Shown: piece by piece, positions 10,201 to 63,874 of the stretch
How the letters are laid out: each line of letters starts with the position of its first letter
How positions within the stretch are numbered: position 1 is the first letter of the stretch
DNA from: Takakia lepidozioides
Lineage: Eukaryota > Plantae > Bryophyta
Assembly: GCA_030704615.1 (NCBI GenBank)
Contig: CM060732.1
Coordinates: forward strand, 27,280,001 to 27,344,000
Length of the DNA stretch: 64,000 nucleotides
Direction of reading: 5' to 3'
Translations under genes and position numbers: made by a program
The notes under the pieces: model-generated
What the model saw: the letters and a program-made list of their open reading frames with translations, nothing else
The model's database searches: none
What the model was told of the DNA's origin: nothing

Positions 10201-10732
10201 TCCTCGGAACAAAACAAGAAAAGAGAAAGGCACTTCATTGTATATGAAACCAGAGGCTGTTTACAGAGCAGTACTTTTCAATTTGACAACAACGCTGTTT
10301 CATGCTATAAATTTCAAATGCTAAAACTTTCACTAAGTTTACGAAAAACAAAGATATTGCTTCAATGCTGAATCAAAATGGGGGGTTTAGGGTGAAGTGC
10401 CCTAAACCCTAAAACTTTTGAGGACTCGGGTGGTTTGTTTAGATTAAAATCTTTAATGAATCAGAACACGATTTCTTGAAACTCTAACTAGGAGGAACTA
10501 ACAAGCCAACCCCTACAAGTGTCTACTTAAAGGTAATCCATCAGTCGCACCAAACAAGATAATATTTGTAAAGGACACTCTGAGAGATAGCCCTCTGAAC
10601 TCACAAATTTGAACCCCAAAGTTCAAGGCATGTGGAGAGGTTCAGAAGTTTATTGCATGTATTAACCATGCTAAGTATAAGCAACAGTAGAATGATACAA
10701 TTTCTATAATTGACCTTACAAATTTTAGGCTT
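7244..10732 (+). repeat. 3.5-kb segmental duplication, copy 1 (copy 2 at 33878-37358)
   Basis: Near-identical from GGACAATGATTAGCTAGAG to TTTTAGGCTT; most ORF-track translations are identical or near-identical; offset about 26.63 kb. Confidence 0.95.
7490..8925 (+). CDS. CR/Crinkler-like effector exon: PD-(D/E)xK restriction-endonuclease-like domain plus protein kinase (intact)
   Basis: RPDTIG...LVGEDK nuclease-like motif; kinase motifs LVHRDIRLPNIV, LIDLE, SPE, SDMYSVG, ALQHPWL; acceptor AAGCAG|G at 7489/7490; ORF track 7411-8925. Confidence 0.8.
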
Positions 10733-11131: not shown

Positions 11132-11283
11132 AGCTTTTCCTTTTACTCATACATGGATTTCCTTCACCTCAGGACTCTGATATCGCTGACTCTGGTATAT
11201 TCATGTGGACAGACACATTGTACAAATGAGACCACAAATTGTAAACAATGGGCCAATTACAGCATTTCTTGAACACAATGAAA

Positions 11284-17426: not shown

Positions 17427-17429
17427 TAT

Positions 17430-19052
17430 GTAGTGTGTCTCCTTTTTAAGTGTCAGGGTCCTCACTGACCACCTTCACTGGCTGATCACACACTGGTGGT
17501 ACGAAGGGTTTCAAGTCCCTCCTACTTCTTGTCCATTCCTTGTTTGCCCCATCTCTTAGCCTGTCATCTGCGTGCGCTTCCCCTATCCTTGTGGTGTTTC
17601 CTGCATCTTTGTACCCAAAAAGTCATAAGGTCCCTCCCATGGAGATATCATGGAGATCTCTTTCCAGGCCTCAACATCATAACCTTGCTGTTTTCCATCA
17701 CTTGCAGTAGGTATGCCCAGTTTGATGCCTCCTTTCATTCCCTTGCCTGCTGCCGCTGCCCTTCTTCACATTTTTTCGCAGCTTTGCCTTCATCTCTGTG
17801 AGAAGCTGGATTTTCTGCTGCATCATAAGTGTGACCTCTGCTACAGATCCATCAGAATTTACTGGTGTTGTAAGAAAATGCAACCTGTTGTCAATTCCCA
17901 GCCTTGGAATTCTACCAGTAAGTACCTGAAAAGGTGAGAATCCAGTGGAAGCATGGACACCATTCTGTAACCAAACAGGGCTTATAGAGATTCTGATCCC
18001 ATTCAGTGTCGTTTCCAACTCCTAGGGTGGTGATGCTCTGTTGAGAGACTTAATGACCCTTTCCACCATACCGTTACACTGAGGCCAGTAGGGGGCGCTA
18101 TGCTCCCTCTTTATACCGTATTCGTGGCATGTATCTTCAAACTCACCTCCCCACTCTGTGCCATTGTCAGTGAGCAACGTATGTGGGCAGCTATACCTGT
18201 CAATTACTTCTTCCTCAAGAAAGCGGGCAGCAAGGGCTGCTGTATGATCTCCACTGGTGCAGCTTCTATTCCATTTTGAGAAGTGATCGATTGCCACCAG
18301 AAAGTACTGATTGCCCTGCTGGTTATAGGTAATGGTCCTGCAGTGTCAATTGCAACTCTGAAAAAACAGATCTACTACTGGAATGCTGTGAAGTTTTGAG
18401 CTACCTGAGCGCAACACTCCGTTCTGTTTGGCCATCTGACATTTACCACAGCCCTTGAGAACTTTCCTGATGAGTTTTGTTCTATCATGCCAGAAATAAC
18501 GTCGGCATATCTCCTCTTGAGTTCTTCTGACTCCAAAGTGGCCAGTGGCTTCATGTACTTCAGTGATTATTGCCCCTCTGTCAGGTTTGGTGGAACTACC
18601 CTTCCATCAAAGTAGACCTCACCTTTGAGATAGGAGTACTGCCTTGCCTGCCTCTTGGCTCTCGTGCTCTCCTCTTTTGTCAGGTAGTCATTGACTTCTC
18701 CAAAACATAAGAGGTGCATGACTTCCACATCATCAAGCACATCAGGTTGCCTTTCCTCCTTAACAGCTGCTGTATGCTGGTCAGAGCTGATGAGAGAGCC
18801 TTTTCCCCCATCTTTCAGCCTCACGTAATAATGACATCTGAGTAGCTTTTGGTGGGTGCGGTCCATGGTACCCAGTCCCCTTCATCAATCTTGTTGCAAG
18901 AAGAAGTGGTGGTTCTGAACCACTTGTTCCATCACTGTCTGAAGAACAAACGTCTTGGTGGAACACTCACCCCCATGTTTTCCTTGGCTGGGCATTCTGA
19001 TGAGGAAGTCACCCGCGTTCTTCTTGTAGTTGGAGTGCTTGTCAAGTCTTGA
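17430..19052 (-). pseudogene. Degenerate Ty3/Gypsy integrase region
   Basis: HHCC motif (HEATGHFGVRRT...CGKC), AIDTAGP, AIDHFSKW, LLTDNGTEW, PQCNGMVER; frameshifted; runs into the gap. Confidence 0.85.
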
Positions 19053-19552
19053 NNNNNNNNNNNNNNNNNNNNNNNNNNNNNNNNNNNNNNNNNNNNNNNN
19101 NNNNNNNNNNNNNNNNNNNNNNNNNNNNNNNNNNNNNNNNNNNNNNNNNNNNNNNNNNNNNNNNNNNNNNNNNNNNNNNNNNNNNNNNNNNNNNNNNNNN
19201 NNNNNNNNNNNNNNNNNNNNNNNNNNNNNNNNNNNNNNNNNNNNNNNNNNNNNNNNNNNNNNNNNNNNNNNNNNNNNNNNNNNNNNNNNNNNNNNNNNNN
19301 NNNNNNNNNNNNNNNNNNNNNNNNNNNNNNNNNNNNNNNNNNNNNNNNNNNNNNNNNNNNNNNNNNNNNNNNNNNNNNNNNNNNNNNNNNNNNNNNNNNN
19401 NNNNNNNNNNNNNNNNNNNNNNNNNNNNNNNNNNNNNNNNNNNNNNNNNNNNNNNNNNNNNNNNNNNNNNNNNNNNNNNNNNNNNNNNNNNNNNNNNNNN
19501 NNNNNNNNNNNNNNNNNNNNNNNNNNNNNNNNNNNNNNNNNNNNNNNNNNNN
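19053..19552. other. Assembly gap (500 N)
   Basis: Run of N. Confidence 1.
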
Positions 19553-21112
19553 ATCTGGTGACAACAAACCCTAAGTACTTAAACCTCACTATTAGCAAAC
19601 TCAGGCCGTAGAGCCCTAAGAAACTCAGACCGCCACAGGAAAACCTAAATTATCCCGATGACAAAACCCCGATGACAGGGAGAAGGGTTTACCACTGCCT
19701 TTACATGTGTCTGTTGTTGAAGGAGCATCCTGGGTCCAAGGAATCGCTTGACTGCTTAAACTACTCGAACTCAAGACAGAAAAACAAAGAAAAGCAACAA
19801 AAGCAGGAAGAAAAGCAAAACCCTGCTACCTGTTGTAGGTGCTACAAAATCTTTGAGAAGTATCCCCACAACAGATGTATGTGACCAACCCATGTTGTTG
19901 AGTTGCATCTATCATGTAGTGCTCAACCACAATTCCACATATAAATAACAAACAACCGTGTCTTTCAAAGGACCCTCCTCACATTTTACTTGTTAACATG
20001 GATCTATCGAATGAATAAACTGCGTGTATCAACCGTACACAGGATCACACACGGGATTGGGAGAAGCTGTTGAAACCCCGAGTGCACAACGCAGCCAAGA
20101 AACCAAAAAATTGCAAACACTTGACTCCATGCTACGCATTGAACGAATCATCGAACAAATCAGCAACTGCAGCGGGTTCAACAATCAACTGCCCATCAAG
20201 AATTCAAATGTGCCTGCCCATCATCAGAATTGCAGACATAAAAACAAACGGGCTCAGACTGCCCTAGGCAACCCATCGACATTCACCAGACTCTCTCCAT
20301 GACGCACTATCTGACACCCTAGCTAATGGGTGAACACTGCCACAGAAGGTTTTGCAGCCAAGGCGGTTTCGGTTAACTCACATAAGTCACCAACAACCAC
20401 ATTCTGTCATCGACCAATTAACAGCTCAAAACATGCGCACAATTTCGGCTAGAGCTTTCTATCCTCTGAAGATGGTACTCAAGAAATCGTAAAGGTTTGA
20501 ACAACACTACTGATTCGCAGGTCACGTGCATCAAAGTACTGAAGAGAGAACATAAACTCATTCTTCACACATTGGTAGCAAACCCTACAAACTTACACTC
20601 ACCAGATTCCCTCCTTGACGCACTATCTGACACCCTAAACCATCAACCATGGTTTCCATAACCAACAATCCCACACAGAAAGTAGGCTGCGAAGACAGAC
20701 ACAACACCGTTCAACCAAGAAGCAAGAGACGTAACAAAAATCAGATGAAGATTTGAAACCCGAACCCTGTACATACTCTTGGGATGCCATTGAGCCAGTC
20801 CAAAACTGTTACGGTTATGGTTGTGGATGCAAAAAATCCAAGAGAGCTCCAGAGACACAAAGGAAGGCTCCCTCTCCCTCACAGTAAAATAGAAGTGGAT
20901 GCAAGGACGGCAATCACTCACAAGTGAACTACCAAAATGACGGTTTAGAGTTAGGGTTTCAGGCCACACAACACTTTAAACCTGCCATCATCTGCCGCAA
21001 TCTGACCGACCACTGCGCTTCAAGAGATTCAGAAGGGCTTGCCCTCTGACCTCGCACGAAAAGTGCCCACAAAGGTTCACGGCCAGACATTTCCAAGAAG
21101 CAGTGCAATGCA
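19553..21112 (-). repeat. Inverted near-identical copy of 31909-33460 (intron mosaic)
   Basis: Identical or near-identical translations on opposite strands, e.g. 20024-20302(+) = 32711-32989(-); 20643-20969(-) vs 32044-32370(+). Confidence 0.9.
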
Positions 21113-24209: not shown

Positions 24210-25178
24210 GTGCTTTTGTTCACCTTTGATGTGGAGTCATTGTATCCTAGCATTCATACTGGGGACGGGCTTCGACAATTGAAGGAGATGATTGCCGGCA
24301 AGTTCAAGTCGCTTCGGTTTGAAAGATTCGTTGTGAGTCTTTCTCGCATGATGTTGGAGAATAACTATCTTCAATTTGGCTCAAGCTATTGGCATCAGAT
24401 CCGAGGCACAACAATGGGTAGCAACTTTGCTATTGTTTATGCTTGTCTCTTTCTTTGCAGCTTAGAAAGAGAGTTGGCTGGTGCTGGAGGAGGTATGTGG
24501 CCTCTATACTACAAGAGATACATCGATGATGGATTTGGAATTTGGGCAAGATCTCGAGCAAGTTTGGAGGCTTAGCTCGATGGATACAACTCTCTTCGTC
24601 CCACAATTTGGAATCAAAGGGTAATCTCTGAGTCTACGGTTGACATTCTTGATATTCAGTTCTTCAAGAGAGTTGATTTTGTCAACCATGGGATTTTATT
24701 TTCGAGATGTCATCAAAAGACACTCAACACATACCAGTATTTGCCATGGACCTCGTGTCATCCACGACACCAAAAACGAGCATTCATCATTGGCGAATTA
24801 CGACGTTACACTTTGAGGGAGAGCACACGGGCAGGTTTTTCCGAGATCAGGCAACTGTTCTATGAGCGACTGCATGCTCGAGGCTATCGAAAGTCTTTTA
24901 TCTTGGAATGTTTTATGCTTTGTGACTATACACAACGTGCTACACTGTTGACTTCGGAGTCCACTCGTAAGTTGACGGGCAAGCGGGCCCCCTTGGTTCT
25001 GAAACTTGAGCATTCGCGTTATACTCGAGCTCTAAGCTTTGAGGGAGTCCTAAACCCTAAACTTCATGTGGGCTTTTTGAAAGATCCGCAGTTAGCGTCA
25101 TTTGACAGACCTATGGTATGTTGGAAGAGGGCACGGAACTTGCGTTCCTATCTAGTTCGTGCTATGTTACAAATCTAG
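24210..25178 (+). pseudogene. Penelope-type reverse transcriptase (degraded)
   Basis: FTFDVESLYPSI, QIRGTTMGSNFA, YKRYIDDGFGIW, thumb SCHPRHQKRAFIIGELRR and RARNLRSYLVRA; stop at 24573-24575 plus a frameshift; no GIY-YIG follows. Confidence 0.85.
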
Positions 25179-25527: not shown

Positions 25528-26140
25528 TTATAGAGATTCGCTTTGCTGCATCTGTGTTCTTGTCTCTTTGTCTCATTGGCGTTGTTGTTGTTGTTGAGTT
25601 TTAGATTTGATCTTCTGCATAGTTCATTGCATTCATTTGCTTTGTGTCTATTGTAGTGCATGTTTTAAACTCATTTTCGAGTGTTGCATGTTAGATCTCA
25701 TTCTAAGACTGTTCTTTAGTGTGTCTATTCTCTTGCATAGAGATAGGTTACTATTCTCCTGTCCTTACAATGAATTAGTTTCATCACACACACTTGTCTC
25801 TTGTATATCTTTGCATTTGCACTTTAGAACGTTTCAACATCACTCCCACTCAGTTCTATTCTAGTTTTCTGTGTCTTAGGATCGATTCTTTTAGTGTTGA
25901 TTCACAGGCTAGATATTTCTACAAGTTTTTTAAGGTGTCCATAACTGGCCCCCCCTAAAAACTTGTTTGCACTTTGTTTCTATTGCACCCGGTGCATTCG
26001 CGGTTCGAACTTTGTTGCACTACTACATGTATTTGTTTCCACTCTTTCATAGACTTGGAAGTTTGGCTCCATGGATACAATTCTCGTAGTCCCACAATTC
26101 AGATTCAAAGGGTAATCTCTAAGTCCGAATTTCTGAGTCG

Positions 26141-26358
26141 GAGGCAGTCCGCATCAGCATTTCCTACCTGTCTGGCCCCAAGCCCCACTGTTTCTTTTTC
26201 AAGAACTCGTTATACCTGCATTGCTGCATAATTGACCTCACAATGTCATCCGTTGTGGCAGTGAGGATGTCCACCAGATGCGCCGCAGAGGAGGCACGCT
26301 AGGAAGAATGCAATGATTTGGCCATGTTTGCTGTCGGTGTCGGAGTCGAGACACATTT
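26141..26358 (-). pseudogene. Captured fragment of the Mutator-type transposase seen at 61331-61560
   Basis: Reverse complement closely matches AAATGTGTCTCGACTCCGACACCGAC...GCTGATGCGGACTGCCTC. Confidence 0.85.
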
Positions 26359-33877: not shown

Positions 33878-36800
33878 GGACAATGATTAGCTAGAGTAAC
33901 GAGTTGCCTTGTGGTGGTTTGAGATTCTCAGGGTCCTGTGGCCTGAGTTTGCTGATAGTGAGGGGTTCGTTTGTCACCGGATCATGGTAACTTCTGCCTT
34001 GATATTCTGGTAGTTGACTGTCATTTTGGTCGTTCACTTGTGAGTGCTTGCCGTCCTTGCATCCACTTCTATTGTTATTCTGAGTCATTTTGTTGCTGTT
34101 GTTTGTGATACATCTCAAGCAGGTTATCGCAAAGATCGTTCCGAAGCTTGGATCAGGCACATGCTGCTCCCACAGCTACCTGAGCTCCCCCAAAATAAGG
34201 CCGGTCTTGAAAAGGTATTGTTCCCTGAGCAGCATCGGAAGCTTCCTGTAACGCCGCAGACCTATGAGTATGTATCAGCAACAATGCCCGAGTTGGCGGC
34301 GAATGTTTTAATCGAGACAGATGGTTCAAGACTTCCTTGTTTAGTGTGAGCCTTCCTATCGCGCCAACTTGAGGAGATAGTCACCGAGATACAAACATCG
34401 TTCCTCGTTGCATGCGGCGGCTTGCAAGAGTTCTTTGGCGTTTTCAAGCAATATGTGGCCGGTTTTAAGGTCACGTTTTCATTCAATTCTACTGACAGGG
34501 CGCGGTACAGTTTCTCCCAAACTACTGCACACAGGACAAGGCCTGATACGATTGGCATAGCCTTTGGATGCACCTTCCTAGTAGGTGAAGACAAGGTTGG
34601 CAACTTGCATGCAGCTGAAGGCGATCTTCGTTCTAAGATGAGGTCGCTTAATCCGATGTTTTATGGGGAATTGAAATTTATTCTAGGCTACATAGCAGCA
34701 GGCACTGAATTTCAGTGGGTGTATATCGGCAGGAGAGGTCCAAAGGAGTTGTATCCAGTGGGTCGACGTCTTAACCTATCAGATATTTCTGATCGCTGCC
34801 ATTTTTTACTCGGCGTAGGCTATGCCTTCCAGCTAATGAAGAAAATGCATGACTCTGTTCCGGTAGTCCCAGGTCGCCGTGCCATGTTTTCTATGGAAAA
34901 GTCACCGGATGGAAGGAGGAGTATTTACTTTTATGATGACAAAGTGGCGAAGCACATTAGAGACTTTTCTAGTTATAGTGCTGACCAGGGGACGGATATT
35001 ACCGTGATAAAGAGGGCTTATGTTGCTGCGAGAACATGTAAGTTTCTGCCGCAGATGGTGGCATTGCCTGTCGAAACTGCTCATGGATCCTACAGAGTTG
35101 AGTTTGGTCCTCTTGGATACCAATGCAGATTGGAGTCTGAAGAGGAATGCAGGTGGATGGCTCAGTGTGTCTGCCGAGCCTTATGTATCCTCCACAGTGC
35201 GGGCCTGGTGCACAGGGATATCCGACTCCCAAATATTGTGCGCCTTTCAGATACAGATTTCATGCTCATCGACCTCGAATCTGTAGCAGATTTTCCTTTC
35301 AAATTGTTTGATGGATTTCAGCCTTTCTCAGCCTGGTCTCCGGAGATGTGTGAGGGCAACCAGTATACGCCCTTTTCAGACATGTATAGTGTTGGCAAAC
35401 TCCTGGATGAGTATATCCCCGTTGCAAGGACAGCACATGCTGAAGACTTTATAAGGAAGCTCACTGACAAACAACTCAGTTCATTACAGGCATTACAACA
35501 TCCTTGGCTATCAGAGCTCATGCTGTGGGTTTATCCTAATTCATCTCTCATTTTGTGACCTTGATGTTTGCTGATGTTTGCTGATGTTTGTGCAAGTTGG
35601 TAAAACCTTGTCCTTAGTTGCTACATGTTTGAGGCTCAGCTCTTAAATCTGCAATTGGATTCTCTTTAACCTATATTCTCTGATTGACCTTTTGTACACT
35701 GTTTAATGGCACCTCCAGTTTTTCACATAATTCTAGATGATCTAATCAAATAGACTAAAAAGAATGAGAGGTAATTGTTGCTGGCCAAATGAGAGGGAAT
35801 CCCAGAAAACTGGAGCTGTTGGAATTCATTCTGATTGCACTGTAATTCTTGGTAAAAGGCGAAAGAGTTGTCTGCTCTGAGCTGGGCATCCCGCTTATTT
35901 GGTCTGCGGTTCTTGCTTAAGCTTGTAGCAAAGTGGTTGTCTAATATGTTGGATGTGTCGTTTGCAGGAGTTTTGACTCGAGGCGGTGGAAGCGACTGTT
36001 GATGCACTTGCTGCTGTGCACTTTTTCATGGGGACATTCGATGCCCTAATATCTTGGTTGATTTTAGGGGGCATTAAGGTGTTTGTTTGATCGATTTTGG
36101 TATTTCACGACCCATCACCAGTACTGAAGATCGCAAGAGGGAGTGTGTGCAACTGGAAGTCATGTTGGAACATGTGCAGAAACTCGGCGATCTTGCTCAT
36201 AGGGAGGGCATCCCTGCTGGGCGTGTACACTGAATATTGATATGTGCAGAATGTTGCTACGAAGAACTTAGTTCTTGGAGACAAGTGTTGCTGGTTTTAT
36301 TTTTGGAAACCCATGAACCTCATTCTGCTATCATGTACTCTAGGAGAATGAACCAGAGATTCTTGTACCCAGAGTGTATAGAGGTTTTTTTGGTCAAGGT
36401 CCAATAGATCTGTACAGTGACAGCACTGTTTTTCTTAATGTTTAGGAGATGTCTTTGTTGGCCTTACTGGATTTTTTGGACTCTGCAGATAGCCTTGGCC
36501 ATGACAGCCTCAGTTAGTGACTCCATGATTTCAAATTCGAGTCAGCAATCCCTTGATGCACTCTTATCTTGTTCTCCGGCACGTCGTGTTGAATGTTGCC
36601 ATTGAGGCAGGATTTGACCTCCGCAACTGCATAGGTGGTTTCACCAATTCTGAGAACATCCCTGTTTCTGAGCTTCCCGTGTAATCGTGATTCCATGTTG
36701 AACTCACAGTTCACTCTTCAAGCTTAGCTTTCCATCAGATAACGCAGATGTGATAAAGACAACTAAAACTTCCGTTTCAGTTTTCGCTCGAGTAAACAAG

Positions 36801-37358
36801 ATATTCATTTTTGTTGATGTGTCATTATTATTCCTCGGAACAAAACAAGAAAAGAGAAAGGCACTTCATTGTATATGAAACCAGAGGCTGTTTATAGAGC
36901 AGTACTTTCAATTTGACAACAACGTTGTTTCATGCTATAAATTTCAAATGCTAAAAATTTCACTAAGTTTATGAAAAACAAAGATATTGCTTCAATGCTG
37001 AATCAAAATGGGGGGTTTAGGGTGAAGTACCCTAAACCCTAAAACTTTTGAGGACTATGGTGGTTTGTTTAGATTAAAATCTATAATGAATCAGACCACG
37101 GTTTCTTGAAACTCTAACTAGGAGGCACTAACAAGCCAACCCCTACAAGTGTCTACTTAAAGGTAATCCATCAGTCGCACCAAGATAATATTTGTAAAGG
37201 ACACTCTGAAAGATAGCCCTCTGAACTCACAAATTCGAACCCCAAAGTTCAAGACATGTGGAGAGGTTCAGAAGTTTATTGCATGTACTAACCATGCTAA
37301 GTATAAGCAGCAGTAGAATGATACAATTTCTATAATTGACCGTACAAATTTTAGGCTT
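33878..37358 (+). repeat. 3.5-kb segmental duplication, copy 2
   Basis: Near-identical to 7244-10732. Confidence 0.95.
34123..35558 (+). pseudogene. CR-like REase+kinase exon, copy 2, with nonsense mutation
   Basis: GGA>TGA at 34347-34349 relative to copy 1; otherwise near-identical protein. Confidence 0.85.
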
Positions 37359-50154: not shown

Positions 50155-51324
50155 TGTGTCCCACAACAATGGCAAAGAAACAACTTGCACCGCCGGTATG
50201 AGTCCTCCTGATTCACAATCCGAATCAGAACCTTCCGTACAAGACACAGGAGGTGAAGGTGGCCTAAACCGCACACCTCGTCTCGTGTACCCACTAGTAT
50301 CGCTAGTGCTCGAACCGGCACTGTCCCAGCAACTAGTGGCACCTCCGTGTTGACACTCAACCGGTCATGAACATGTCCCTAACCCCCTCTCCACAAGGTA
50401 ACCGGGTAGAGAACCTGTTGCGGCTTATGGTTTGGAATACTAAGTTCCTAACATAGCCTACACCTGTACCTGCATCCATCGCAAGCACTCCTATGGTTGG
50501 CTGGTCGTCACCTCCAACCTTACCACAGGAGAAACAATGATGGTCTGGCTGGTCATCACCCCAGCCTCACCATCGACAGCATGCTCTAGGACTGGCCGAT
50601 GATCAAATCTGGACCAATCACCTATAAAAACAAGCGCCCACATAAAACTAGCATGGCGCACAGTCAAGCATGCAGGTATGGAGGGGATCCAAACACAAGA
50701 AATCAGAACGACAACTCCCCCACACCAAAAACAACTCCACGGTGTTGCTCCTGCAAGAACACCCCAGCCCAAACCCGGGCTGACTCTTGCCTCCACCTAC
50801 GGAAAGGTCTTGGCCTAATGAGAGGGTGGAAACTACGAGGAAGAGAAGCTAAAGCAATGCACTACAACAGATTGCGGCTTTTACGACTCCCATGGGTGCG
50901 CAGTCGTGACAGATTTGTGGCAGAAATGCCATTTGCAGTCGTAAAATGCTTTTGAAGTCATAATGCAGGTCTGGGGAAGGCGTATATGCGACTGCATGGC
51001 TCCGGACTTTGCGGAACACATGTCAAACATGTTTGACCACGAATATTGGCATGGCAGATATGATTACCAGTCACGGTCATGGCTACACTAGAATGACGTG
51101 TGTATATTGCTAGAAAGACATATGACTTCATGACTCTCACTCTAATGCATTCTGCCAGATCATCACATGGATGAATCACTACATGACTGCACATGTCAAC
51201 ACATGCTTTTCTGGTTATATATATAATATATGAGTATTTATATTTTGAAAAAACGGAGACTCTGACCACTAGAATCAATTCTTTTTAAAAACAAAATGCA
51301 ATTTTTATTAAAAAAAAAAACACA

Positions 51325-51530: not shown

Positions 51531-51849
51531 CAAAGAGGGGCTTTTAGGGTTTACAAAAAGGTTAAAAAACTTAAAAAGTTGCCCATCACGGTAGCGTGAA
51601 CAGACTTAGAGCGAGCGGGAGGGAGAGAGAGAGAGGGTTGGGACTTAGAGCGAGCGAGCGGGAGAGAGGGCAAACATGCATGGGAGGCCCGCAGTTGGAT
51701 CAACCTTCGCATTTGGAGCAAGCAACCCTAGAAACGCTACGGTATGTGTGCGAGGAGGTTTCGGCTGGGAGCCCGCCGTTCTTGGGAGAGTCAGCTTCGT
51801 CTTAGCAGGCCGTGTTTCAATCTCTACCCGCTCGGCCCTGATTTTACAG

Positions 51850-54700
51850 CACGGAGCAGAGCTGGCATGAGTTTCTAAAAGATCCTTCACGATGGTGGGA
51901 CAACCGCAATCGCAAGGTGGGCTTTTTCTTAATGTACGATGTGAAGAAGTTTGTCCATCCTGCAAATGTGGGTTGTTGGCTCCTGTTAGTACCATGATTT
52001 GGTATTCTTCCTGATGTTTACAAGGTTCTTGGGAGAGTTAGCTTGGTCTTAGCAGGCCGTGTTTCAATCTCTGCCCACTCAGCTGCACCGTGGTGGTTCT
52101 CACTGACCAATCCGACATTACCTGACTACAGAAACAAGCAGCACACTGAAGAGGTCCTCTTGGGTTCATGGTCAGTCAAATCCTCCATGGGCCATGACAC
52201 AAGGTCGAGGACAATGTGGTGAGGGCACCTTCTTCTTCGACCTATTTCAGCCTGTTTTGCCCTCTCATCAGACTCGGCCCTTCATTTGCAGCACGGAGCA
52301 GAGTTGGCATGAGATTTTTAAAGATCCTTCACGATGGTGCGACAACCGCAATCACAAGGTGTGGCTTTTCTTAATGTATGATGTGAAGAAGTTTGTCCAT
52401 CCTGCAAAGGTGGGCTCTTGGCTCCTGTTAGTACCATGATTTGGTGTTCTTCCTGATGTTTCAAGGTTCTTGGGAGAGTCAACTTGGTCTTAGTAGGCCG
52501 TGTTTCAATCTCTGCCTGCTCATCTGCACCGTGCTGGTTCTCACAGACCAATCCGACATTACCTGACTACAAGACACAAGCAGCACACACAAGAGGTCCT
52601 TTTGGGTTGATGGTCGGTCAAATCCTCTATGGGTTCTTCTTCGACCTATTTCAGCCTGTTTTGCCCTCTCATCAGACTCGGCCTTGAGATGCATATTGAA
52701 TTATGTAAGTTAGCTCGTTGCTCATTGATAAGTAGGGTTGGGGGTGTTTGCTGGAATGATTGTTGTATGCATGATTTTGTGCAGAGGCATAGATAGCTGA
52801 AGGAGCAGGGATAGAGTGTGGAAGAGGGCCAGATTTCAAGCTCCAGATTATCTATGATTCCCTGTGGAAGGATAGATACAAGAAACCTGCATGGGTAGAT
52901 GGTCAATTGGAAGCCGCAGCAGCAGCAGCACAATTGATACAATCAAGCACTGCTAATGAAGGCACCTTCTGAAACACATTTCACCCTATTTTCCCCTCTT
53001 ATCAGAATCGGCCCTAAATTTTCATGTTCAATTCTGCAAGTTAGCTGGTTGAGTGAATCTAGTTGGAGTGACTTTGACATGATATTGCCAATGTGACAAG
53101 AGTATGCATTGAACCCATTGGTAGCGGGATATTGGGATATCTCTTGGCCATGTGCCATCGTCAAAGCTGAAACTGTACTAGTTGTCATTCTGACCACTGC
53201 CCTAGTGGACATGTATGCCAAATGTGGGTGCAGCAAGCCTGATGCAAAGGGAGAGTTCGACAACATGGCTAAATGAGATGTGGTGTTGTGGACTGCCAGG
53301 ATTGTAAGGTGTGTGTAGCATAGGTGTGGGAGTAAGGCTTTGGAAACCTAAGAACAAATGATGTGGGAAAGGATGAAGCCAAACCAGGTCATGTTCATTT
53401 GTGTTTGTTAATATGCATATGCAAGCCTAGCAGCCCTGGGAAGGGGCCAAGAGGTTCATGGTGACATCATCAAAGCTGGAATTGTACCTGATGTCATTCT
53501 GAACATTCCCCTGGTGTACATGTATGTCAAATGCGAGCCTGGTAGCCCTGGAAAGGACGCAAAGGTCCATTATCAAATCTGGAATTGTACCACTAGATGT
53601 CACTCTAAACACTGCCTTGGTGGATATGTATGTCAAATGCACGCCTGGCAGCCCTGAAAAAGGGTACAGAGGTCCACGGTGATATTGTCAAAGCTGGTAT
53701 TGTATTTGATGTGATTCTGAACGTTGCCGTAGTGGACATGTATGCCAAGGTTGTGGAATGGTGGGACAACCGAGGGAAAAAGGTTAATGCCTGTTAGATT
53801 ATAGAGGGCAGACGCAATTCAGCATATGAACTAGTGTGATAAGCTGAGTTGGGTGTTTCCTAGAACAAATGTAGGCTGTCATTATCAGCTGCAAGGCAAG
53901 GAAGTATGCATGATTTGTGTAGAAGCAGTGATAGCTGAAAGAGCAGGGATAGAGTATGGGTCCAGATTCATCCAAGAGGGCCAGATTTCAAGCACATGAT
54001 TACCTATGATTACCTGTGGATTTAGCTATAAGAAACCTGTATGGGTAGATGGTGAACTGGAAGCCGCAGGAGTAGCGGCACAATTGATAAAATCAAGCAC
54101 TGCTAATAAAGGCACCTTCTTCAACACATTTCACCCTGTTTTTCCCTCTTATCAGAACCGGCCCTAAATTTCAATGTCTGCAAGTTAGCTGGTTGAATGA
54201 ATCTAGTTTGGAGTGACTTTGACATGATATTGCCAATGTGACAACAGGAAAGTATCGAAAAACAGTTAACGGAGATGAGGGGAAGCTGTGGAATGAATAC
54301 TTTTCTGACCCCAGTCAATGGTGGGACAACTGAGGCAAAAAGGTAAATGCCTGTTGGATTACAGAGAGTAACAGATGCAATTGAGAATAGGAACTTGTGT
54401 GGTAAGTTGAGTTGGGTGTTTGCTGGAACAAATGTAGGCTGTCATTGTCAGCTGCTAACAGCAATGCAAGGATATATGCATGATCTATGCAGAGGCATGG
54501 ATAGCTGAAGGAGCAGGGATAGAGTGTGGGTCCAGATCATCCAAGAAAGCCGGATTTCAAGCTCCAGATTACCGATGATTCCCTGTGGAAGGATAGCTAC
54601 AAGAAACCTGCATGGGTAGATGGTCATGGGTAGATGGTAGATAGTTTGGAGTGACTTTGATATGATACTGCCAAAGTGACAATAAAAAAGTATCCATAAA
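51850..54700 (+). pseudogene. Captured fragments of OSB-type PDF-motif exons and a PLS-PPR gene
   Basis: WHEFLKDPSRWWDNRNRK, LWNEYFSDPSQWWDN, PRGPDFKH, KKPAWVDGQLE; PPR LVDMYAKCG...DVVLWTA...VHGDIIKAG at 53140-53750; stops and internal duplications. Confidence 0.75.
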
Positions 54701-55739
54701 CAGGTAACAGTAGCAGATGCAATTCAACACAGGCACTAAGGCAAACTCTCCTTCCCCGTAAGGGTGTGTTTTGGTATCTGAGCGAATAAATATTTTATCT
54801 AAGAATATAATTTCAAAAATTCGTTATTTAATAATGTGCCACTGTCCCATGTTGGTCAGTAATAATAATTATAATAACAAATAATTATAATAATTATTTT
54901 AGTAATTATAATAACAATAAAGTAAATCTACAACCCCCAACAGCGACGCGTGTCAATTGACATGAGGAACCACGTGTCAAAATCACGATGTGACACATGC
55001 TGACGTCAAATTCCCTCCTCTGCAGTCGGATGGCGTCGCAGTCTGACACGTGGCGTGTTTTGTAGAGAGCACGTGTCTCTATTACACAGCGGCTGACATG
55101 GACCCGTTCAGTCATTCAGTAATGCCAGCGTGTATGACTACCCCCACAACAGCTGCTCTGGCGCCACGTGACAGCCAGCCTGGAGAGTCATATCTGCCAT
55201 GTCACAATTGACTAGGTCTTTATGTCTGCAGAGTCAGGAAGTCATAAATGGCTTCTATGACTGCATTTGCAGTCATAACACAGAGACGTAAAAGCCGCAA
55301 TTTGTTGTAGTGATGCCTAACCCCAGCATGCCCTCATCCCAACACTCTTCCTCTCCTCTCTTCCCTCACTTGCATGACCATGGGAATATCATGAAGATAC
55401 TCCTCAAACCGCCCTCCACGAGCTTCAAAATTCGGCCTTCAAGACGGGGGGTGCTATTCCGTGAGCCCAGAGGCGTGAACCTATGAGCCCAGGAAACCGT
55501 GAGCCGAGCACAGGCTCACGCCACGTCAGCATGCATACAGGGCCTATTTCCGCGTGTGTCACCTATTACCGCGGGTTGAACAGCCATTTCCCGGGAATGC
55601 AGACTGGATGTGTTACATCCATTGTATCCATCCTTTGTATCCATTGCATCCATCTAGACGTTATCAACATACCAAGCCCTTGCATTGGAATGTGGGTACG
55701 TCGTGAGGAGGTGCACACTGACATCAACTAAAGCGGATC

Positions 55740-58348
55740 CCTGCGAAATCTTTTCTTACTCACCACCCTTGCGAACATGCCAGGTATGTGCGGGAGCATC
55801 ATGGATGCTCACCAAATTTGAGAATGCCTGAACGATCTTTGATCACGTGGACTTCACCTCGATGGATTTACCAAGCATTCTTCTAGCAGGAATGGTTTGG
55901 AGACAAGCGAGCAAATGATGCGAGAATGCTCTACACGAACCAAAGTCGATTGTTTGTTTTTGAAATGCACTCAAGCCTGTACAGTCCACAAAACTCTAAA
56001 TAGATTGAAGGAACAATCCGGGAACAATCCGGGCTGCTGCGGCGGTGGCTGCTATACGCTCATTCTCTCTCCTCAAAGACACCTCCTGAGTTGGGGTCTC
56101 AGAAGGAGGGCAATCCAAATACCAACCACAAGCAGAAAGATGGTCTGGGCCCCAGTCATGCAAGATCCCAGTAGTAAACATGGTCTGGTTGCCAGCAGGG
56201 ACAAGCCAAAGGTCCACGAAATCAGGATGTTTGCCCAAGCAGTTCTCTTCCATGTGAACAAACTTTACGTACCTGCAGGAACAGAGACGGCCTCATTATG
56301 CAATGCAATTATTGTCTCTCAGCTTTTCCATCACACCAGGAAGACCCCTTAAACAATATGCGGCACAGTACATTGCAACCACCGCACACAAAGTAATCTT
56401 AAGACCCCAGGGTGTGCACCTTGGTGTTACTACACAGGGATAGAACAAATGAGTGTGCGGCACCGCAAACTCATATAAGGGAGCCCAAAACAGGTTGGAT
56501 GGAGGAGAGTGTGTATTTGCAAAACAAAGAAGCACAGTCCATTTCGCACCTGTAAAGGCATCGTTTCCATGCTTCCTCTCCTTTCTCTTGCTGGTCAAGC
56601 TCATTTGTTCGACTAATGCCACCCTCCTTGCTGAACTCTCTAAAGAAACACAATTGTCACACTGTGGCTCTCCATTTCCTCATGTATGCTTGGAAGGAGA
56701 CCTTCGGTGCTATCATGGTGATGCCATAGTCATCCAGCTGAGTATGTAGAACCGACTGGGCCCTTTCTTCCAACTGCAAAACAATTCAAATGCAAGAATG
56801 AACCAAAAAACAATCACAGACAATGTAACAGCCAATGGAAAGAGAAGGACAGAAAAAGCGAAAAAAAAGTGACACAGCAAAGGACATCATACCTAGCTCC
56901 AGTAAGTGGCCTTGTGAAGCCATGTGTCCAGCACATTGTCACTGACATGAATGACACACTGGGTCTTCTTCTCTTTCTCCGGCCTGGAGAACATGTGGGT
57001 ATCCCTAACAGTGGGATCAAAATTTTATATCTGTAGCCACTTCACCTTCTGTTCTGAAGACACAACGGCGGTAGACAACCTGTGTAACTTCTCCTGGGCC
57101 ATCTCTAGCTTGCCTGGCTTGTTGTAATGGTTTTTTACCTCCAGAAGAAACTGCGATCCGAATGATGGGTCGGCAATTCTCAACTGCTTAACAAAAGCAC
57201 TCATAATAGTCCTTCTTGTGGCGGTCATCTCTTTCTGGATGTGACTCTCAACCCCCTTTGCTGTCCTTCTCTCCTCAGGGGTAGAGCTGTAGTATTCCAG
57301 TTTCCCACGCTCTCCTGCATGTGCAATGTCTTGCTGCAAGGGAATGCATGAGAGTTGCATCAACCCAAGGGCAAGGGAAACAAACAGAAACAAACAGAAA
57401 CAAACATGTGGAAGCAGGAATATCAAAAAGACCAGATGATGGAAGATGTATCTCACCGTGTACATATACTCCATGAAAGCCTCACGGGTCAACGAGTACC
57501 ACGTTTCTGATGTCTTGGAGCTTTCGCACTTCTTGTACGTCTCTGCTGAAAGGATGGTCTTGAAGTTGGTCAAGGGCATCTGCCCGATACTTTGTATCAT
57601 GTACAGTGTGTCAACCAGACTCGTTTTGACATGCGATGTCTCCGTCCTTCTGCAGAATGATGTCTGAAAGTCAGAATGAAATTCAAGGACCGTCAACAGA
57701 GGACTGGAACCAAAGAACCACGGAACCACAAGTGGAACATGTAGAATGAGAAACCAACATGTTCACATCAATCATTGCCGTCAGAAGACCCATCATGTTC
57801 CCGTCACAATCCAGCACCATCGATCAAACAGAGTAATGCCAATCTTCCTCCTGTGAGTGTAGCCTCCCAATGACAGCCGTCCATGCAAGCAACCGGTGGT
57901 TGCCATCCCAAACGTGAAACATCTTCCCTGAGAATGCCTGGGTGGAAGGTTTCCTGGAGAGAAGAAGTTCGAAGGATTCGTTCACCTGTCTCCAAATGGG
58001 ATCATAGGAGTCCACAATTGACTCATCCACAAGGACCTCATTGCCTCTGGAATCCCTTGTAGGAACGTAAAAAACTGCGGATCCATCCAAATACCCATGA
58101 ACAAACTCGGCCTCCAGCATCAGGATGTCCTTGACGAGGGGTGGACGAACGACGGGCATGGAAACCAACCTACACAGGGGAATCTTCAACCTCCCACCCG
58201 GGGCAAGCATACTTTGCACCACAAGCTGAGAGTTTACCTCCTGACCCCCCAGCTTCTCAGCGGCTTTGCTTTCATAGAACTCATCGTCTACATCAACAAT
58301 GATCTCTTTCCCCTGCCCCGAAGGGATCTCATCCGCCACACTTTGCAT
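55740..58348 (-). CDS. Multi-exon gene of unknown function with a ParB/Srx-like N-terminal domain (likely transposon-borne; exon structure uncertain)
   Basis: 57824-58348 encodes VVRPPL...FHVWDGNHRLLAW (DGxHR signature); downstream minus-strand open segments with GT-AG boundaries. Confidence 0.55.
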
Positions 58349-58369
58349 CTTCTCCTACAGGGTTGTTCA

Positions 58370-60766
58370 TTCAATTTGATAAAAGAGAGAGGCATGAAAC
58401 GATGGTGTTTTGAGCATGGCAAACAGGCCCTGTGTGCCCAATTTCTCATCAGAAAACAGGCCCTGTGTGCCCAATTTCTCATCAGAAAATTGTGGGGGCC
58501 AAAAACACCGTGCGTTGCCGCACAATGTTTCAGCTTCCAAATTCAGGTGTTTTGAACATGATATTTGGCCCCATGTGGCACATTTCCACAAAAAAAAACA
58601 GGCAGAGAGGGGGCCACAAGAGGGCACAAACAGTGTGCATTGCCGCACACTCTTCGTGCTTCCAACTATGGGAGTTTTGAGCATGCATACTGGCCCTGTT
58701 AGGCCCAATTTCACATAGAAAAACAAGCAGAGAGGGGGCTCAAAACAGTGTGTGTTGCCGCACACTGTTTGAGCTTCCAATAAGGGTTGGATTCAACCTG
58801 CCAAAGTGGCCCCAGGAGACCGATTTTCACATCAAAAGCAATCACAGAAGGAAGCTCAAACAGTGTGCGTTGCCGCACACTATTTGACCTTGCAATAAGG
58901 TGTGATTTTAATATGGCATAATGGCCATGAGTGGCCAATTTGAAATAAAAGAAAAGGCAGTGAAGGGGGCTCAAACAGTGTGCGTCGGCGCACACTGTTT
59001 GAGCTTCCATTTTGGAGTCGAATCAACCTGCCAGACTGGCCGTAGGTGCACAATTTCCATATCCATAAACAAGCAAATCAGGGGGCTCAAACCATGTGCG
59101 TTGATGCACATTGTTTGGGCTGCTAAGTAAGTGTGAATTCAACCTGACAGAGATGACATTTGTGGTCGATTCTAAAATGCCTGCTGCCAGGTAAGTGCAT
59201 TGAAGCTCAAAGAGATGCCCTATGTGGCCGATTTTCAGATAAAAAAAACAATGACATGGTGGGCTGGAACAGTGTGCATTGACGCGCACTGTTTGATTAG
59301 GTATGTCTGCATTGAACCTCAAATACATGCCCTACGTGGCTGATTTTCACATGAAAAAAACAATGACAAGTTGGGCTCAAACAGTGTGCGTTGACGCACA
59401 CTGTTTGAGCTGCCACTTAAGTGTGCATTGAAGCTCAAAGAGATGCCCTACGTGGCCGGGTTTCAGATTAAAAAAACAATGACATGGTGGGCTCAAACAG
59501 TGTGCGTTGACGCACACTTCTGGAGCTGCCACGTAAGTGTGCATTGAAGCTCAAAGATATGCCCTACGTGGCCGATTTTCAGATTTAAAAAAATGACATG
59601 GTGGGCTCAAACAGTGTGCGTTGACGCACACTTCTGGAGCTGCCGGGTAAGTGTGCATTGAAGCTCAAAGATATGCCCTACGTGGCCGATTTTCAGAAAA
59701 ATAAAAAATAAAAAATGACATAATGGGTTGGAACAGTGTGCGTTGACGCACACTGCTGGAGCTGCCACGTAAGTGTGCATTGAAGCTCAAAAATATGCCC
59801 TACGTGGCCGATTTTCAGATTAAAAAAACAATGACATGGTGGGCTCAAACAGTGTGCGTTGACGCACACTGCTGGAGCTGCCACGTAAGTGTGCATTGAA
59901 GCTCAAAGATATGCCCTACGTGGCCGATTTTCAAAAAAATAAAAAATAAAAAATGACATAATGGGTTGGAACAGTGTGCGTTGACGCACACTGCTGGAGC
60001 TGCCACGTAAGTGTGCATTGAAGCTCAAAAATATGCCCTACGTGGCCGATTTTCAGATTAAAAAAACAATGACATGGTGGGCTCAAACAGTGTGCGTTGA
60101 CGCACACTGCTGGAGCTGCCACGTAAGTGTGCATTGAAGCTCAAAGATATGCCCTACGTGGCCGATTTTCAGATTAAAAAAACAATGACATGGTGGGCTC
60201 AAATAGTGTGCGTTGACGCACACTGCTGGAGTTGCCACGTAAGTGTGCATTGAAGCTCAAGGATATGCCCTACGTGGCCGATTTTCAGATTAAGAAAACA
60301 ATGACATGGTGGGCTGGAACAGTGTGCATTGACGCACACTACTAGAGCTGCCACGTAAGTGTGCATTGAAGCTCAAAGATATGCCCTACGTGGCCGATTT
60401 TCAGATTAAAAAAACAATGACATGGTGGGCTCAAACAGTGTGCGTTGACGCACATTGCTGGAGCTGCCACGTAAGTGTGCATTGAAGCTCAAAGATATGC
60501 CCTACGTGGTCGATTTTCAAAAAAAATAAAAATAAAAATAAAAAAAACACTGACATGGTGGGCTGGAACAGTGTGCGTTGACGCACACTGTTTGAGCTGC
60601 CAGGTAAGTCTGCATTGAACCTCAAATACATGCCGTATGTGGCCGATTTTCACATGAAAAAAACAATGACAAGTTGGGCTGAAACAGTGTGCATTGACGC
60701 ACACTGTTTGAGCTGCCACGTAAGTGTGCATTGAAGCTCAAAGAGATGCCCTATGTGGCCGTTTTT

Positions 60767-60823
<57 letters not shown>

Positions 60824-61100
60824 AATGACATGGTGGGCTGGAACAGTGTGCGTTGACGCACACTGTTTGAGCTCCCAGGTAAGTCTGCATTGAACCTCAA
60901 ATACATGCCCTATGTGGCCGATTTTCACATGAAAAAAACAATGACAAGTTGGGCTCAAACAGTGTGCGTTGACGCACACTGTTTGAGTTGCCACGTAAGT
61001 GTGCATTGAAGCTCAAAGAGATGCCCTATGTGGCCGATTTTCAGATAAAAAAAACAACGACATGGTGGGCTGGAACAGTGTGCGTTGACGCACACTGTTT
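58370..61100. repeat. Tandem array of about 22 units (~115-125 bp), each containing a 36-bp palindrome
   Basis: GCTCAAACAGTGTGCGT-TG-ACGCACACTGTTTGAGC (perfect copy at 59375-59410); units are homogeneous at 59.3-61.1 kb and degenerate toward 58.4 kb. Confidence 0.95.
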
Positions 61101-62751
61101 GGATGATGCAGAGACACAGTTTGCATGTATACGGGCTTGGTGGACATCGTCAGGTGCTGTAAGGAAATCAGACGAGGGAGCAATGGTCAGTTGGCTAGCA
61201 TGGTGGCATTATTGTTTCCTCCAGTTCGGCGACTATATGCGGGAGGTGAGTTGCACGAATTCGCGTCCCGTTGAATATTATTCTTGGCTATATTTGTAAC
61301 TTGTTTGTAACCTCAACATGTGCTTGTGCAGGAAATGTGTCTCGACTCCGACACCGACATGCCCACGACAAACATGGCCGAATCAGTGCACTCTTCCTGG
61401 CGTGCCTTCTCTGCGGCGCATCTGGTAGACATCGTCACTGCCACAACGGAGGACATTGTGAGGTCAATAATGCAGCAATGCAGGTACAACGAGTTCTTGA
61501 AAGGGAAACAGTGGGGCTTGGGGCCGGACAGGCAGGAAATGCTGATGCGGACTGCCTCTAGATCGAAGAATCCTCGGAAGTGGGCGGCGGCCTTGCGAGA
61601 GGGCCTTCGGGACACGCCATTGCTGCGAAAAGGCCAAACATTTGGAAGGAGATGTTCATACCCGTCCAGTGAGACGAAGACTTGACGAGGCACCTGGCGG
61701 AGAAGAGGATTCATGGCGAGCTGACAAGAATATTCGCACGCTCCCTCGTGGTCCGGTGATGTTGCCCGAGGAGGTCTCGTCGAGCACCGCAAGTCCTGCA
61801 CGTTCAAGATCGCCATCTCCTTTGAGCACAGGGCGCATGCCCCGACAACATAACGAGCCATCTGTAGTAAAGCAATACAACATTCCCATTGTGGAGACAA
61901 GAGTGTCGGAGTCACAGTGGAGAATTGCGAGGACATTGCCGGCATTTCGAGGGAAGTGCTGCGCCATCCGGGTGGATACGAGAGCACGCTGTGGTGAGAT
62001 GATTCGGAGGAACCCACACGGTGCTGTACCTGCACCTTGTTTCAGCGGCAAATTTTTGACTCCCACATTTGCTCACGCCACAACGCAGACATTTTGGTTC
62101 TGTAGGCACGACATAATGACCTGTGTATTTGGCAAGCCCAAGTACGGGATTCAGGGAATGCCGGAGCCTCCGGGCGTCTGGCCTGTTGCACCGGGTTGCA
62201 GCCTCTCTCAGAATGAGGCAGATGCTCTATCTGCAACAGGATTTTGAATGGTGCAACGCACAGACATCCCGGCCCACGCATTTCCGGTTCCTTAGACCCA
62301 GCCATTGCAGACTGCTCGGTCCAGTAGAGACGGATTGGACAATTCTACACATCCCACAATGCGATTCGGAGGAGTGAAGAGACGACACCCTCCCAACAAG
62401 TTGAATGAGACTCGGATTGCCAATGCTCTTGGGATAGCTTGCACTATTCAGAGCTCCGTGGACGTACCCCCACCCGGCCTTGGGCGTGTATATCGGATGG
62501 CAATGGCCGGCTCGGCTGTACGCGACGATGTATACACAATTACGATTGGAGTGGAGCCGACTTGCAATTGTACGGACTTCTCGTTGATGGAAGCAAAGAA
62601 GGGTTCGAAGTATTATCCGTGCAAGCATCTGTATTACATTTACCTGAAGAGGTTGAGGATGAACGTGACTATTGATGACGTTATTCATGCACCGGCGTTG
62701 AGCGTGAACGAGCTGCACAAACTCCTCCTTAGGGATTCCAGAAATCATTGA
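61101..62751 (+). pseudogene. 5'-truncated Mutator/MULE-type transposase with C-terminal SWIM zinc finger
   Basis: TTNMAESVH (third catalytic E motif), intron 61246-61331, SWIM CNCTDF...PCKHLYY; frameshifts near 61640 and 62250-62300. Confidence 0.65.
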
Positions 62752-62907
62752 TGGGGCAAAGGGAATCCTCCATATGGATATTTTCAATTGCATTTTGCTG
62801 TATCAGACTTTTTTTTGCAGTGTAATGAAATGCACCCCAAAACTCCTGGAATGAGGCAATATTCCATTCAAACTGAGATCCAACAGAAGCAGTTGTGGGG
62901 CCATTTC

Positions 62908-63300
62908 TGGAAAAATGGCGCCGAATTTCTCTTTTTGGGGCCGAAAACTGGCAAAGTCCCAACATGCACTGGTACCTGTGTCTGGGAAAATGGCGCCGAA
63001 TTTCTCTTTTTTGGGCCGAAAACTGGCTAAGTCCCAACATGCACTAGTACCGTGTCTGGAAAAATGGCGCCGAATTTCTCTTTTTTGGGCCGAAAATTGG
63101 CTAAGTCCCAACATGCACTGGTACAGTGTCTGGAAAAATGGCGCCGAATTTCCCTATTTTGCGCCGAAAACTGCCTAAGTCCGAACATGCACTGGAAAAA
63201 TGGCGCCGAATTACCTGTCATGAGGGGACCTATAGCCGCGGAATTCGGCACCATTTTTCGCCAGAGAGACCTATTACCGCGAAATTCGGCGCCATATTTG
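62908..63300. repeat. ~72-bp tandem repeats (GAAAAATGGCGCCGAATT core) followed by inverted cores
   Basis: Five direct copies at 62908-63212; inverted GAATTCGGCACCATTTTT at 63241 and AAATTCGGCGCCATATTT at 63282. Confidence 0.85.
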
Positions 63301-63469
63301 CACATGTCGCTGGGAATTGGCATGAGCGGAAGACGAAATATCATGAGCACAACTGTCAAAACTGCAATTTTCCCTTCAAGGGGCCGATAAAATATTTGTT
63401 TTTCCTGACACATTGCATTAAATTATTGTTTTTTTATTGTTTTTTATTTTCGAAATTTGTACTTCTGCT

Positions 63470-63874
63470 CATGAAAACCGATTGTCTTAAACTAATGTGC
63501 TTTTCTCATTTGTATCCGTCAGTGACATATAAAAACTTGTGCACCAAGTCTGTATCCATGCACGAAATCAGTTTCCAATTTTGTATGTCATGGGAAAGTG
63601 GAGGACGCACAACAGGCATAGATATCATCCGGCATAGAGGGATGTCAAGACGTCCTCCAGAGACGAGCATGTCCCTAATAACCTCCTGGGAGTTTACCTT
63701 CTGGAATGACATGAGTTCTTTCACCTTGTCAAGGTAGTGCACTTCAGGTTCATCCGTTTCATCGTTATTCTCCGAACTCTTCGCAGAGTCGTCCCCATCT
63801 CCAGAACCTTTTGCCTCTGTTCCTGTCAGCTTGGTCTTCACAGTTTTCTGCATAATGCCATGCCAATCAGACAC
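63470..63874 (-). pseudogene. Truncated, frameshifted paralog of the ParB-like gene
   Basis: VNSQEVIRDMLVSGGRLDIPLCRMISMPVVRPPL, then shifted-frame KLETDFVHGY, matching 57824-58348. Confidence 0.75.

Follow-up and report, generated by a model that had tools for sequence, protein, structure and literature searches.

The 64,000-nucleotide stretch of Takakia lepidozioides DNA analyzed here (contig CM060732.1, positions 27,280,001 to 27,344,000; the window) is repeat-rich land-plant nuclear DNA and contains a decayed and non-autonomous copy of a plant DNA transposon that is present in many copies and is likely of the Mutator type. We are confident in identifying this copy as a transposon that comprises an accessory gene, a palindrome array, and a transposase. 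The order in the window is a five-exon accessory gene (minus strand), 22 palindromes, the 3′ half of the transposase gene (plus strand), 74-bp repeats, and a second ParB-like piece (minus strand) (Table 1). The first exon of the accessory gene is predicted from a structural model to have a ParB/sulfiredoxin (Srx) fold, and the C-terminal domain of its full-length relatives is predicted, likewise from a model, to have the fold of beta-class N4/N6 DNA methyltransferases. On balance, we favor the reading that the accessory protein likely reads the element's own palindrome array and keeps the element from being silenced.

Table 1. Features of the element and its immediate neighbor (window coordinates)
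Feature	Position	Strand	Description
Probable left end	55446..55651		Putative; G-run start, short subterminal motifs
Tail with four stops	55652..56019	-	Position of linker and methyltransferase domain in relatives
Exon 5, conserved part	56020..56272	-	W-Y-L-D/E-C motif
Exon 4	56550..56773	-	tblastn matches in related loci; one premature stop
Exon 3, helical middle region	56893..57333	-	tblastn matches in related loci; two premature stops
Exon 2	57457..57649	-	GT-AG borders; tblastn matches in related loci
Exon 1, predicted ParB/Srx-fold domain	57759..58348	-	IPLCR..., DGNHR, M-x-D-x-N; premature stop 57824-57826
Palindrome array	58499..61100		22 units of ~116 bp, palindrome of up to 36 bp in each
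Mutator-type transposase, 3′ half	61101..62751	+	W-rich block, N-x-x-E-x-x-H block, C-terminal SWIM; intron 61246-61331
Right arm	62906..63488		74-bp repeat × 3.9 with GGCGCCGAA half-palindrome, subterminal motifs
Second ParB-like piece	63491..63874	-	Truncated, frameshifted 5′ part of exon 1, related subfamily

The accessory gene begins with an ATG at position 58348, and the first palindrome lies 151 bp away, in agreement with the first-pass annotation of this DNA, which had placed a DGNHR-containing minus-strand gene beside the array. Its five exons have GT-AG borders and form a model of 689 codons with eight stops, four of them within conserved exons 1 to 4. Because other copies (in runs X1, X3, and X5) have sense codons at the stop positions 57826 and 57026, the window copy has decayed, and the gene is a pseudogene here. 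Matches of exon 5 in related loci are confined to its residues 1 to 85, and a rearrangement joint with a loose end in run X3 lies near position 56022, which suggests that the methyltransferase part has been lost from the window copy. The stop-containing tail was considered as a methyltransferase remnant because of a by-eye likeness, and this candidate failed all sequence tests.

Exon 1 has 88 close homologs, most of which end at the same intron position, and its family comprises 1,204 clusters at 50% identity. Pfam returned no match for this exon or for its 40-member alignment, and a PDB sequence search gave a single, spurious ribosomal match. The AlphaFold model of exon 1 (predicted local distance difference test score [pLDDT], 81) is closest to ParB/Srx-fold proteins, which occupy ranks 1 to 8 of its 20 structural matches (Z 3.2 to 5.5), as the first-pass annotation had anticipated. 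These include SerK (Z 5.5, root mean square deviation [rmsd] 2.5, 70 residues aligned), Srx (Z 5.3), KorB (5.2), SbnI (4.7), and PadC (4.1), and Noc, Srx, SbnI, SerK, and ParB recur among the weak rows of a Foldseek search. In the full-length model of a relative from the liverwort Riccia sorocarpa (P0264), residues 110 to 265 match KorB with Z 7.6 (rmsd 2.8, 95 aligned). The Box II motif GxxR takes the form DGNHR in 139 of the 179 stored motif-bearing proteins and also occurs as EGNHR (12) and NGNHR (5). ParB proteins have the Box III consensus ENxxR; the helix that matches Box III here carries a conserved M-H-(D/N)-(I/L)-N, which keeps the Asn without the Arg. The Atlas shows a weak link to fungal DUF3723 clusters (47% of the members of one cluster).

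The first-pass annotation saw the ParB fold of the accessory protein but missed the methyltransferase fold of its full-length relatives. Named relatives come from R. sorocarpa, which contributed 24 long proteins in one search, and from the fern Adiantum nelumboides; among the Riccia proteins, P0236, P0247, and P0264 are naturally intact. Full-length relatives have about 1,100 to 1,200 amino acids, are encoded by intron-containing genes, and carry a long helical insert between the two folds. In the P0264 model (mean pLDDT 66), residues 790 to 1067 match CcrM with Z 17.6 (rmsd 3.4, 214 aligned), followed by MboIIa (Z 17.4), PvuII (16.7), and rotifer N4CMT (16.4), with M.BceJIV also among the matches; the methyltransferase match of the full-length Riccia model in Foldseek has an E value of 1.5e-8. 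Beta-class traits found in the relatives are the fold and the order of motif IV before motif I. At the level of profiles, Riccia P0236 matches PF01555 with E 5e-5, which is under the curated cut-off, and all Atlas matches of the genome-bin locus L081 are to PF01555. The S-adenosylmethionine-binding motif I (FxGxG) reads DFAGGWG in several Riccia proteins and is intact in some members only; P0264, L016, L021, and L081 have the variant D-x-x-A-x-(S/T)-G. Four Riccia proteins (P0234, P0236, P0237, and P0247) are named "Trimethylguanosine synthase" in UniRef, probably a misannotation, since the fold of the family matches beta-class DNA methyltransferases.

To place the gene in context, we used a set of 81 related loci in 53 clusters, namely the best 80 of 315 metagenome loci plus L081. 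A profile of the methyltransferase exon is positive in 28 of the 81 loci, every time on the strand of the accessory gene, and in 18 of the 27 clusters that have at least 3 kb downstream. Earlier iterated profiles had found three loci for exon B of the methyltransferase and one locus for exon C, the latter with a seed that was out of frame. The domain order, ParB then methyltransferase, is constant across liverwort, fern, and metagenome loci. Searches of viral contigs and prokaryote genomes gave no prokaryotic relative at the sequence level; the viral contigs returned no related locus, although two stretches scored as relatives, and a phage protein named ParB/Srx appears among the viral structure matches. 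The sole contig from the prokaryote search, which lies in a cyanobacterial genome bin, encodes an apparently intact, intron-containing ParB-methyltransferase gene (L081:552-4161). We read it as probable plant contamination, given its introns and its nesting among eukaryote-type rows.

The array contains 22 palindrome copies between 58499 and 61104, spaced 112 to 178 bp apart. The number first reported, about 22, thus stands, but the palindromes are not head-to-tail 36-mers: each lies within a unit of about 116 bp. Their 16-bp core, TGTGCGT-NN-ACGCACA, contains two CpGs and is exact in 13 of the 22 copies. The 17-bp arms are fully paired in one copy and pair at 11 to 16 of 17 positions in the others. 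Across all 80 metagenome loci, the stretches up to 2 kb upstream of the gene total 108.8 kb and hold 12 sites of the window core (at most three mismatches), compared with 0 to 1 sites in five shuffles and 10 sites in the remaining 538 kb. A third lineage, represented by L001, has a single core site with one mismatch. The clade of L046, L053, and L075 has a different palindrome, arrayed both upstream of the gene and inside it; one half of this palindrome, GGCGCCGAA, is common to L031 and to the 74-bp repeats of the window and occurs at 79 sites, versus 17 to 29 in shuffles. The type of palindrome changes with the clade in the accessory-gene tree; the palindromes are conserved and subfamily specific.

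The transposase remnant reported earlier was borne out by a SWIM finger at about 62533 to 62634 (PF04434, E 0.001), whose score of 19.0 bits is just under the cut-off of 19.6; this region is also present in L033, L026, and L041. The array was described as running directly into the transposase, and the last palindrome does abut the coding sequence at 61100/61101, but this contact is a deletion joint at which the 5′ half of the gene was lost, since 15 contigs of run X1 extend the transposase frame upstream of 61099. In L033, which has gene, palindrome array, and transposase in the order of the window, about 4 kb with the remaining transposase separates the equivalents of the array and the 3′ half. 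The DDE signature of Mutator transposases includes D, D, x-x-H-W, and E, and candidates for these motifs can be recognized by eye in L033. Seven loci (L020, L026, L033, L041, L064, L070, and L075) have the same transposase, in divergent orientation, upstream of the accessory gene, and none has it downstream, where about 90 kb of distal DNA served as a control. Counted by cluster, 6 of the 15 with at least 5 kb upstream are positive (5 of 12 after three flank-sharing pairs are merged). The expectation that the parts co-occur elsewhere therefore holds for the divergent gene pair in these clusters and for the core upstream of related genes, but most loci lack a transposase. Only the 3′ end of the transposase is left in L026, L041, and L064, 550 to 1,230 bp upstream of the gene, a derivative that shows the same kind of 5′ loss as the window. 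A 90%-identical fragment of transposase positions 61333 to 61558 lies on the minus strand at 26131 to 26358, beside TAAACCC telomere-type repeats.

Other copies helped to delimit the element; 20,598 and 12,332 contigs of run X1 align to its two halves, and no contig of run X8 aligned. Contigs of runs X3 and X5 match the window up to 55445 and then continue into other sequence, a loose end that resembles an empty site, so that the element probably starts at 55446. The terminal 16-mer of this left end occurs once in the window, and its 12-bp subterminal motif recurs in direct orientation near 63230 to 63280. The right arm is severed at about 63488, and other copies have loose ends at 63488 to 63491. 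Its repeats, which had been given as 72 bp, measure 74 bp in 3.9 copies. They are part of the transposase's element, since contigs from other copies link transposase positions to the right arm through internal deletions (e.g., 61375 to 63014); the alternative that they begin a second element was dropped on the same grounds. The claim that two ParB genes flank the element did not hold. There is a ParB-like piece beyond the right arm, but it ends at the joint near 63490, ahead of the DGNHR motif, whereas other copies of it stay in frame past 63491 (read by hand), and a second ParB copy was found in 0 of the 81 loci. This piece is a truncated neighbor and no conserved part of the element. To the left, a CACTA-type element whose subterminal motifs are palindromic has its right end at positions 54760 to 55312, inside a higher-copy repeat and with a loose end at 55313; the CACTA-type end at 55301 to 55312 belongs to another insertion and not to the ParB element.

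How the accessory protein would act on its palindromes can be outlined by analogy with VANC, the accessory protein of VANDAL elements, which is the best parallel for the chromatin or anti-silencing role proposed in the first-pass annotation. The protein would dimerize via a nucleotide-binding ParB domain and would be loaded onto the palindromes, which are symmetric, contain CpGs, and lie in the promoter region that the two genes share. Its methyltransferase-fold domain would write N4-methylcytosine (4mC) or N6-methyladenine (6mA) at the targets or, if catalytically dead, would cover or flip the target bases, and either mode would oppose host 5-methylcytosine (5mC). Deleted copies, that of the window among them, would be served in trans, as VANDAL copies are by VANC. 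A role as palindrome reader is suggested by the symmetry of the sites, which suits a dimer, by their presence both within the gene and in the promoter region it shares with the transposase, and by their change with subfamily; for anti-silencing, the argument is the VANC precedent, in which the targets also lie in tandem repeats. Palindrome binding by the protein is a real possibility at slightly less than even chances, and active methylation by the modeled domain is doubtful.

Several findings weigh against this reading or against its components. The Z-scores of exon 1 against ParB folds are modest, Foldseek gave no match to its model at E ≤ 0.001, and a helix-turn-helix (HTH) cannot be clearly seen in the full-length model beyond a weak extension of matches into the helical region (Spo0J, Z 5.7, rmsd 5.9; pNOB8 ParB, Z 8.0, rmsd 5.0). 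Motif IV of the relatives is D-(L/M/I/V/Y)-P-(T/S/E/F) and not (D/N/S)PP(Y/F/W): among 21 protein rows, it reads DLPT in 6, DMPT in 6, DLPS in 3, DIPT in 1, and DVPF in 1, with 4 unparsed or misparsed, and the loci add DYPE, DVPE, DIPE, and NVPS. No methyltransferase homology was found in the window copy or its tail by tblastn, profile hidden Markov models, or Pfam, and the window's subfamily may never have had this domain or may have lost it. The palindrome core is present in 5 of the 28 clusters with at least 1 kb upstream and absent from 23, and the five positive clusters form one clade, a long branch apart from the window, and so count as one observation. A transition-tolerant core pattern, found at 22 sites in 67.9 kb upstream versus 1 in 255 kb elsewhere in 33 representative loci of the 53 clusters, was defined after the arrays had been seen. 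Nine of the 15 long-upstream clusters lack a transposase; such loci may be old and deleted, or the gene may also move without the transposase. The decayed transposase frames have no match to Pfam MULE. Neither terminal inverted repeats, which non-TIR MULEs lack, nor a target-site duplication, 8 to 11 bp long in Mutator elements, could be found: the left end has no inverted partner in the window, the right end is missing, and there is no convincing pair in 11 long related loci. Finally, a Mutator transposase can itself be a sequence-specific activator of cognate copies (bioRxiv 10.64898/2026.08.24.746577).

The strongest rival keeps the element but would have its palindromes bound by the transposase or by a host factor, within a bidirectional promoter, while the ParB-methyltransferase would do something else, for example as a non-specific chromatin binder or an integration helper, or would be an inactive passenger. 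The lack of a clear HTH and the altered motif IV fit this explanation, as do the binding and activation of cognate copies by a Mutator transposase alone and the persistence of the array in the window although the accessory gene is dead. Transposases usually act at element ends, however, and here palindrome type tracks the clades of the accessory gene, one of which has its arrays inside the gene, far from the ends; the constant domain order from liverwort to fern and metagenome loci also speaks against this rival. We consider this rival unlikely, if to be taken seriously.

Chance nesting of unrelated repeats (a ParB-like family, a satellite, and a Mutator fragment) is very improbable. The window is indeed a repeat mosaic, the contact between array and transposase and the second ParB-like piece are rearrangement joints, and the transposase is absent from most related loci. 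Against this stand the same side and orientation of the transposase in seven of seven positive loci with none downstream, the recurrence of the window's order in L033, and the enrichment of the core far above shuffles. The least credible rival, a true ParB/parS-like partition system or clamp that tethers or segregates excised element circles, would suit the ParB fold, the GxxR-type box, the Asn conserved where Box III lies in ParB, and the parS-like 16-bp palindrome, but the partition-like role first suggested found no support. Among the nearest structural matches are the ATP-using SerK, Srx, and SbnI; orphan proteins with a ParB fold differ in the nucleotide they use and in what they do (PMC12704722); and the C terminus is a methyltransferase fold and not a ParB dimerization domain.

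A bolder version of the anti-silencing reading, which we regard as improbable, would make the protein a phage-type ParB-methyltransferase that serves as a nucleotide-gated clamp on parS-like arrays: it would load, spread, and write 4mC or 6mA against 5mC silencing in an old, widespread Mutator family of seed-free plants. If true, a transposon would encode an epigenetic writer that is addressed by sequence, a ParB/parS-like system would be known for the first time from a eukaryotic nucleus, and host 4mC enzymes might have had a source pool in this family. Little is understood about the accessory genes of Mutator elements beyond Arabidopsis, and few eukaryotes are known to have 4mC. In a family of this size, the combination of a ParB fold and an amino-methyltransferase fold on a plant transposon near subfamily-specific palindromes provides a protein and a site that can be tested together directly. 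The family is relevant to the escape of transposons from DNA methylation, to the origin of plant 4mC and 6mA writers, and to the question whether clamps of the ParB type can operate on eukaryotic chromatin. Even with a dead methyltransferase, it would represent an unannotated domain architecture on an unrecognized transposon family.

The rest of the window contains other repeats. A 3.5-kb duplicate (98.9%; 7244 to 10732 and 33878 to 37358) carries a kinase-domain open reading frame (ORF) (PF00069, E 2e-10), and a 2.2-kb inverted repeat (98.5%; 11283 to 13449 and 15270 to 17427) surrounds two diverged, opposed ORFs with no Pfam match; an assembly gap (a run of N) lies between the inverted and direct duplicates at about 19030 to 19570. 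Positions 24576 to 25178, which have no Pfam match, look like what we take to be a Penelope-type reverse transcriptase (RT) tail. Tandem decayed repeats at 51800 to 54720 are PPR-like (by eye) and of a WWDNR/KPDFK type, with very high copy in run X1. On the minus strand, a Ty3/Gypsy-type retrotransposon spans 43064 to 50364; upstream of its RT lies a domain of the C5 cytosine methyltransferases (PF00145, E 5e-12, 46199 to 47215), and its integrase is followed by a PHD finger. It resembles the DNA methyltransferase-carrying retrotransposons described in PMC5890265, here in a land plant.

Our literature search found no published description of the element, in keeping with its designation as possibly undescribed in the first-pass annotation; subscription journals, Repbase/Dfam, and supplements, which lay outside the search, could hold one. 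These plant transposons, likely of the Mutator type, with palindrome arrays and an accessory gene for a protein of predicted ParB and methyltransferase folds, are apparently an undescribed variant. A survey of MULE groups lists extra ORFs of the PMD, FAR1, SET, and OTU kinds and unknown ones, reports that a C-terminal SWIM zinc finger is common in plant MULEs, and does not contain the word "methyl" in its available text (PMC6446971). Dinoflagellate and charophyte retrotransposons share with our family a mobile element that has its own DNA methyltransferase domain but differ in being retrotransposons with C5 chemistry and a domain inside the polyprotein, without ParB or a palindrome array (PMC5890265). 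Marchantia DN4MT1 (bioRxiv 10.1101/2021.02.12.428880) and rotifer N4CMT (PMC8885841) likewise place a beta-class, prokaryotic-type fold in a eukaryote; they are host enzymes that carry SPPY-type motifs and lack a ParB domain, DN4MT1 having no extra domains (PMC8885841), whereas the present family is multicopy and transposon linked.

With bacterial ParB/parS, Noc, and KorB, the accessory protein shares the N-terminal fold, a GxxR-type box, and 16-bp palindromes nearby; it differs in its C-terminal methyltransferase fold, which replaces the dimerization domain, and in its eukaryotic transposon context, and it is not a canonical ParB. Closer in domain content are the ParB-N6_N4 methyltransferase fusions (PF02195 plus PF01555) typical of phages and prophages (PMC12704722), which also combine an N-terminal ParB fold with a C-terminal beta-class amino-methyltransferase fold (PMC12704722, PMC4738411); the nucleotide preference of ParB folds is not predictable from sequence (PMC12704722). 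In contrast to these fusions, the gene described here is eukaryotic, contains introns, resides on a DNA transposon, and has a long helical insert and an altered motif IV. A survey of eukaryotic adenine methyltransferases reports clades of phage origin in haptophytes, chlorophytes, and chytrids; its available passages do not name the present family (PMC4738411).

In anatomy, the element, itself likely of the Mutator type, comes closest to the non-TIR Mutator elements VANDAL with VANC: both have an accessory gene and motifs multiplied in tandem repeats that differ by subfamily, and the repeats with the VANC targets are found upstream of the transposase gene as well as in introns of the accessory gene (PMC5735166). 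VANC, however, has DUF1985/DUF287 domains and 9-bp non-palindromic motifs (PMC5735166), whereas here ParB/Srx, helical, and amino-methyltransferase regions occur with palindromes, and neither the window exons nor the full-length relatives match DUF1985/DUF287 in Pfam. The hosts also differ, those named here being a liverwort and a fern. By analogy of anatomy, then, the element would be VANDAL/VANC-like and, without the VANC domains, not a member of that group.

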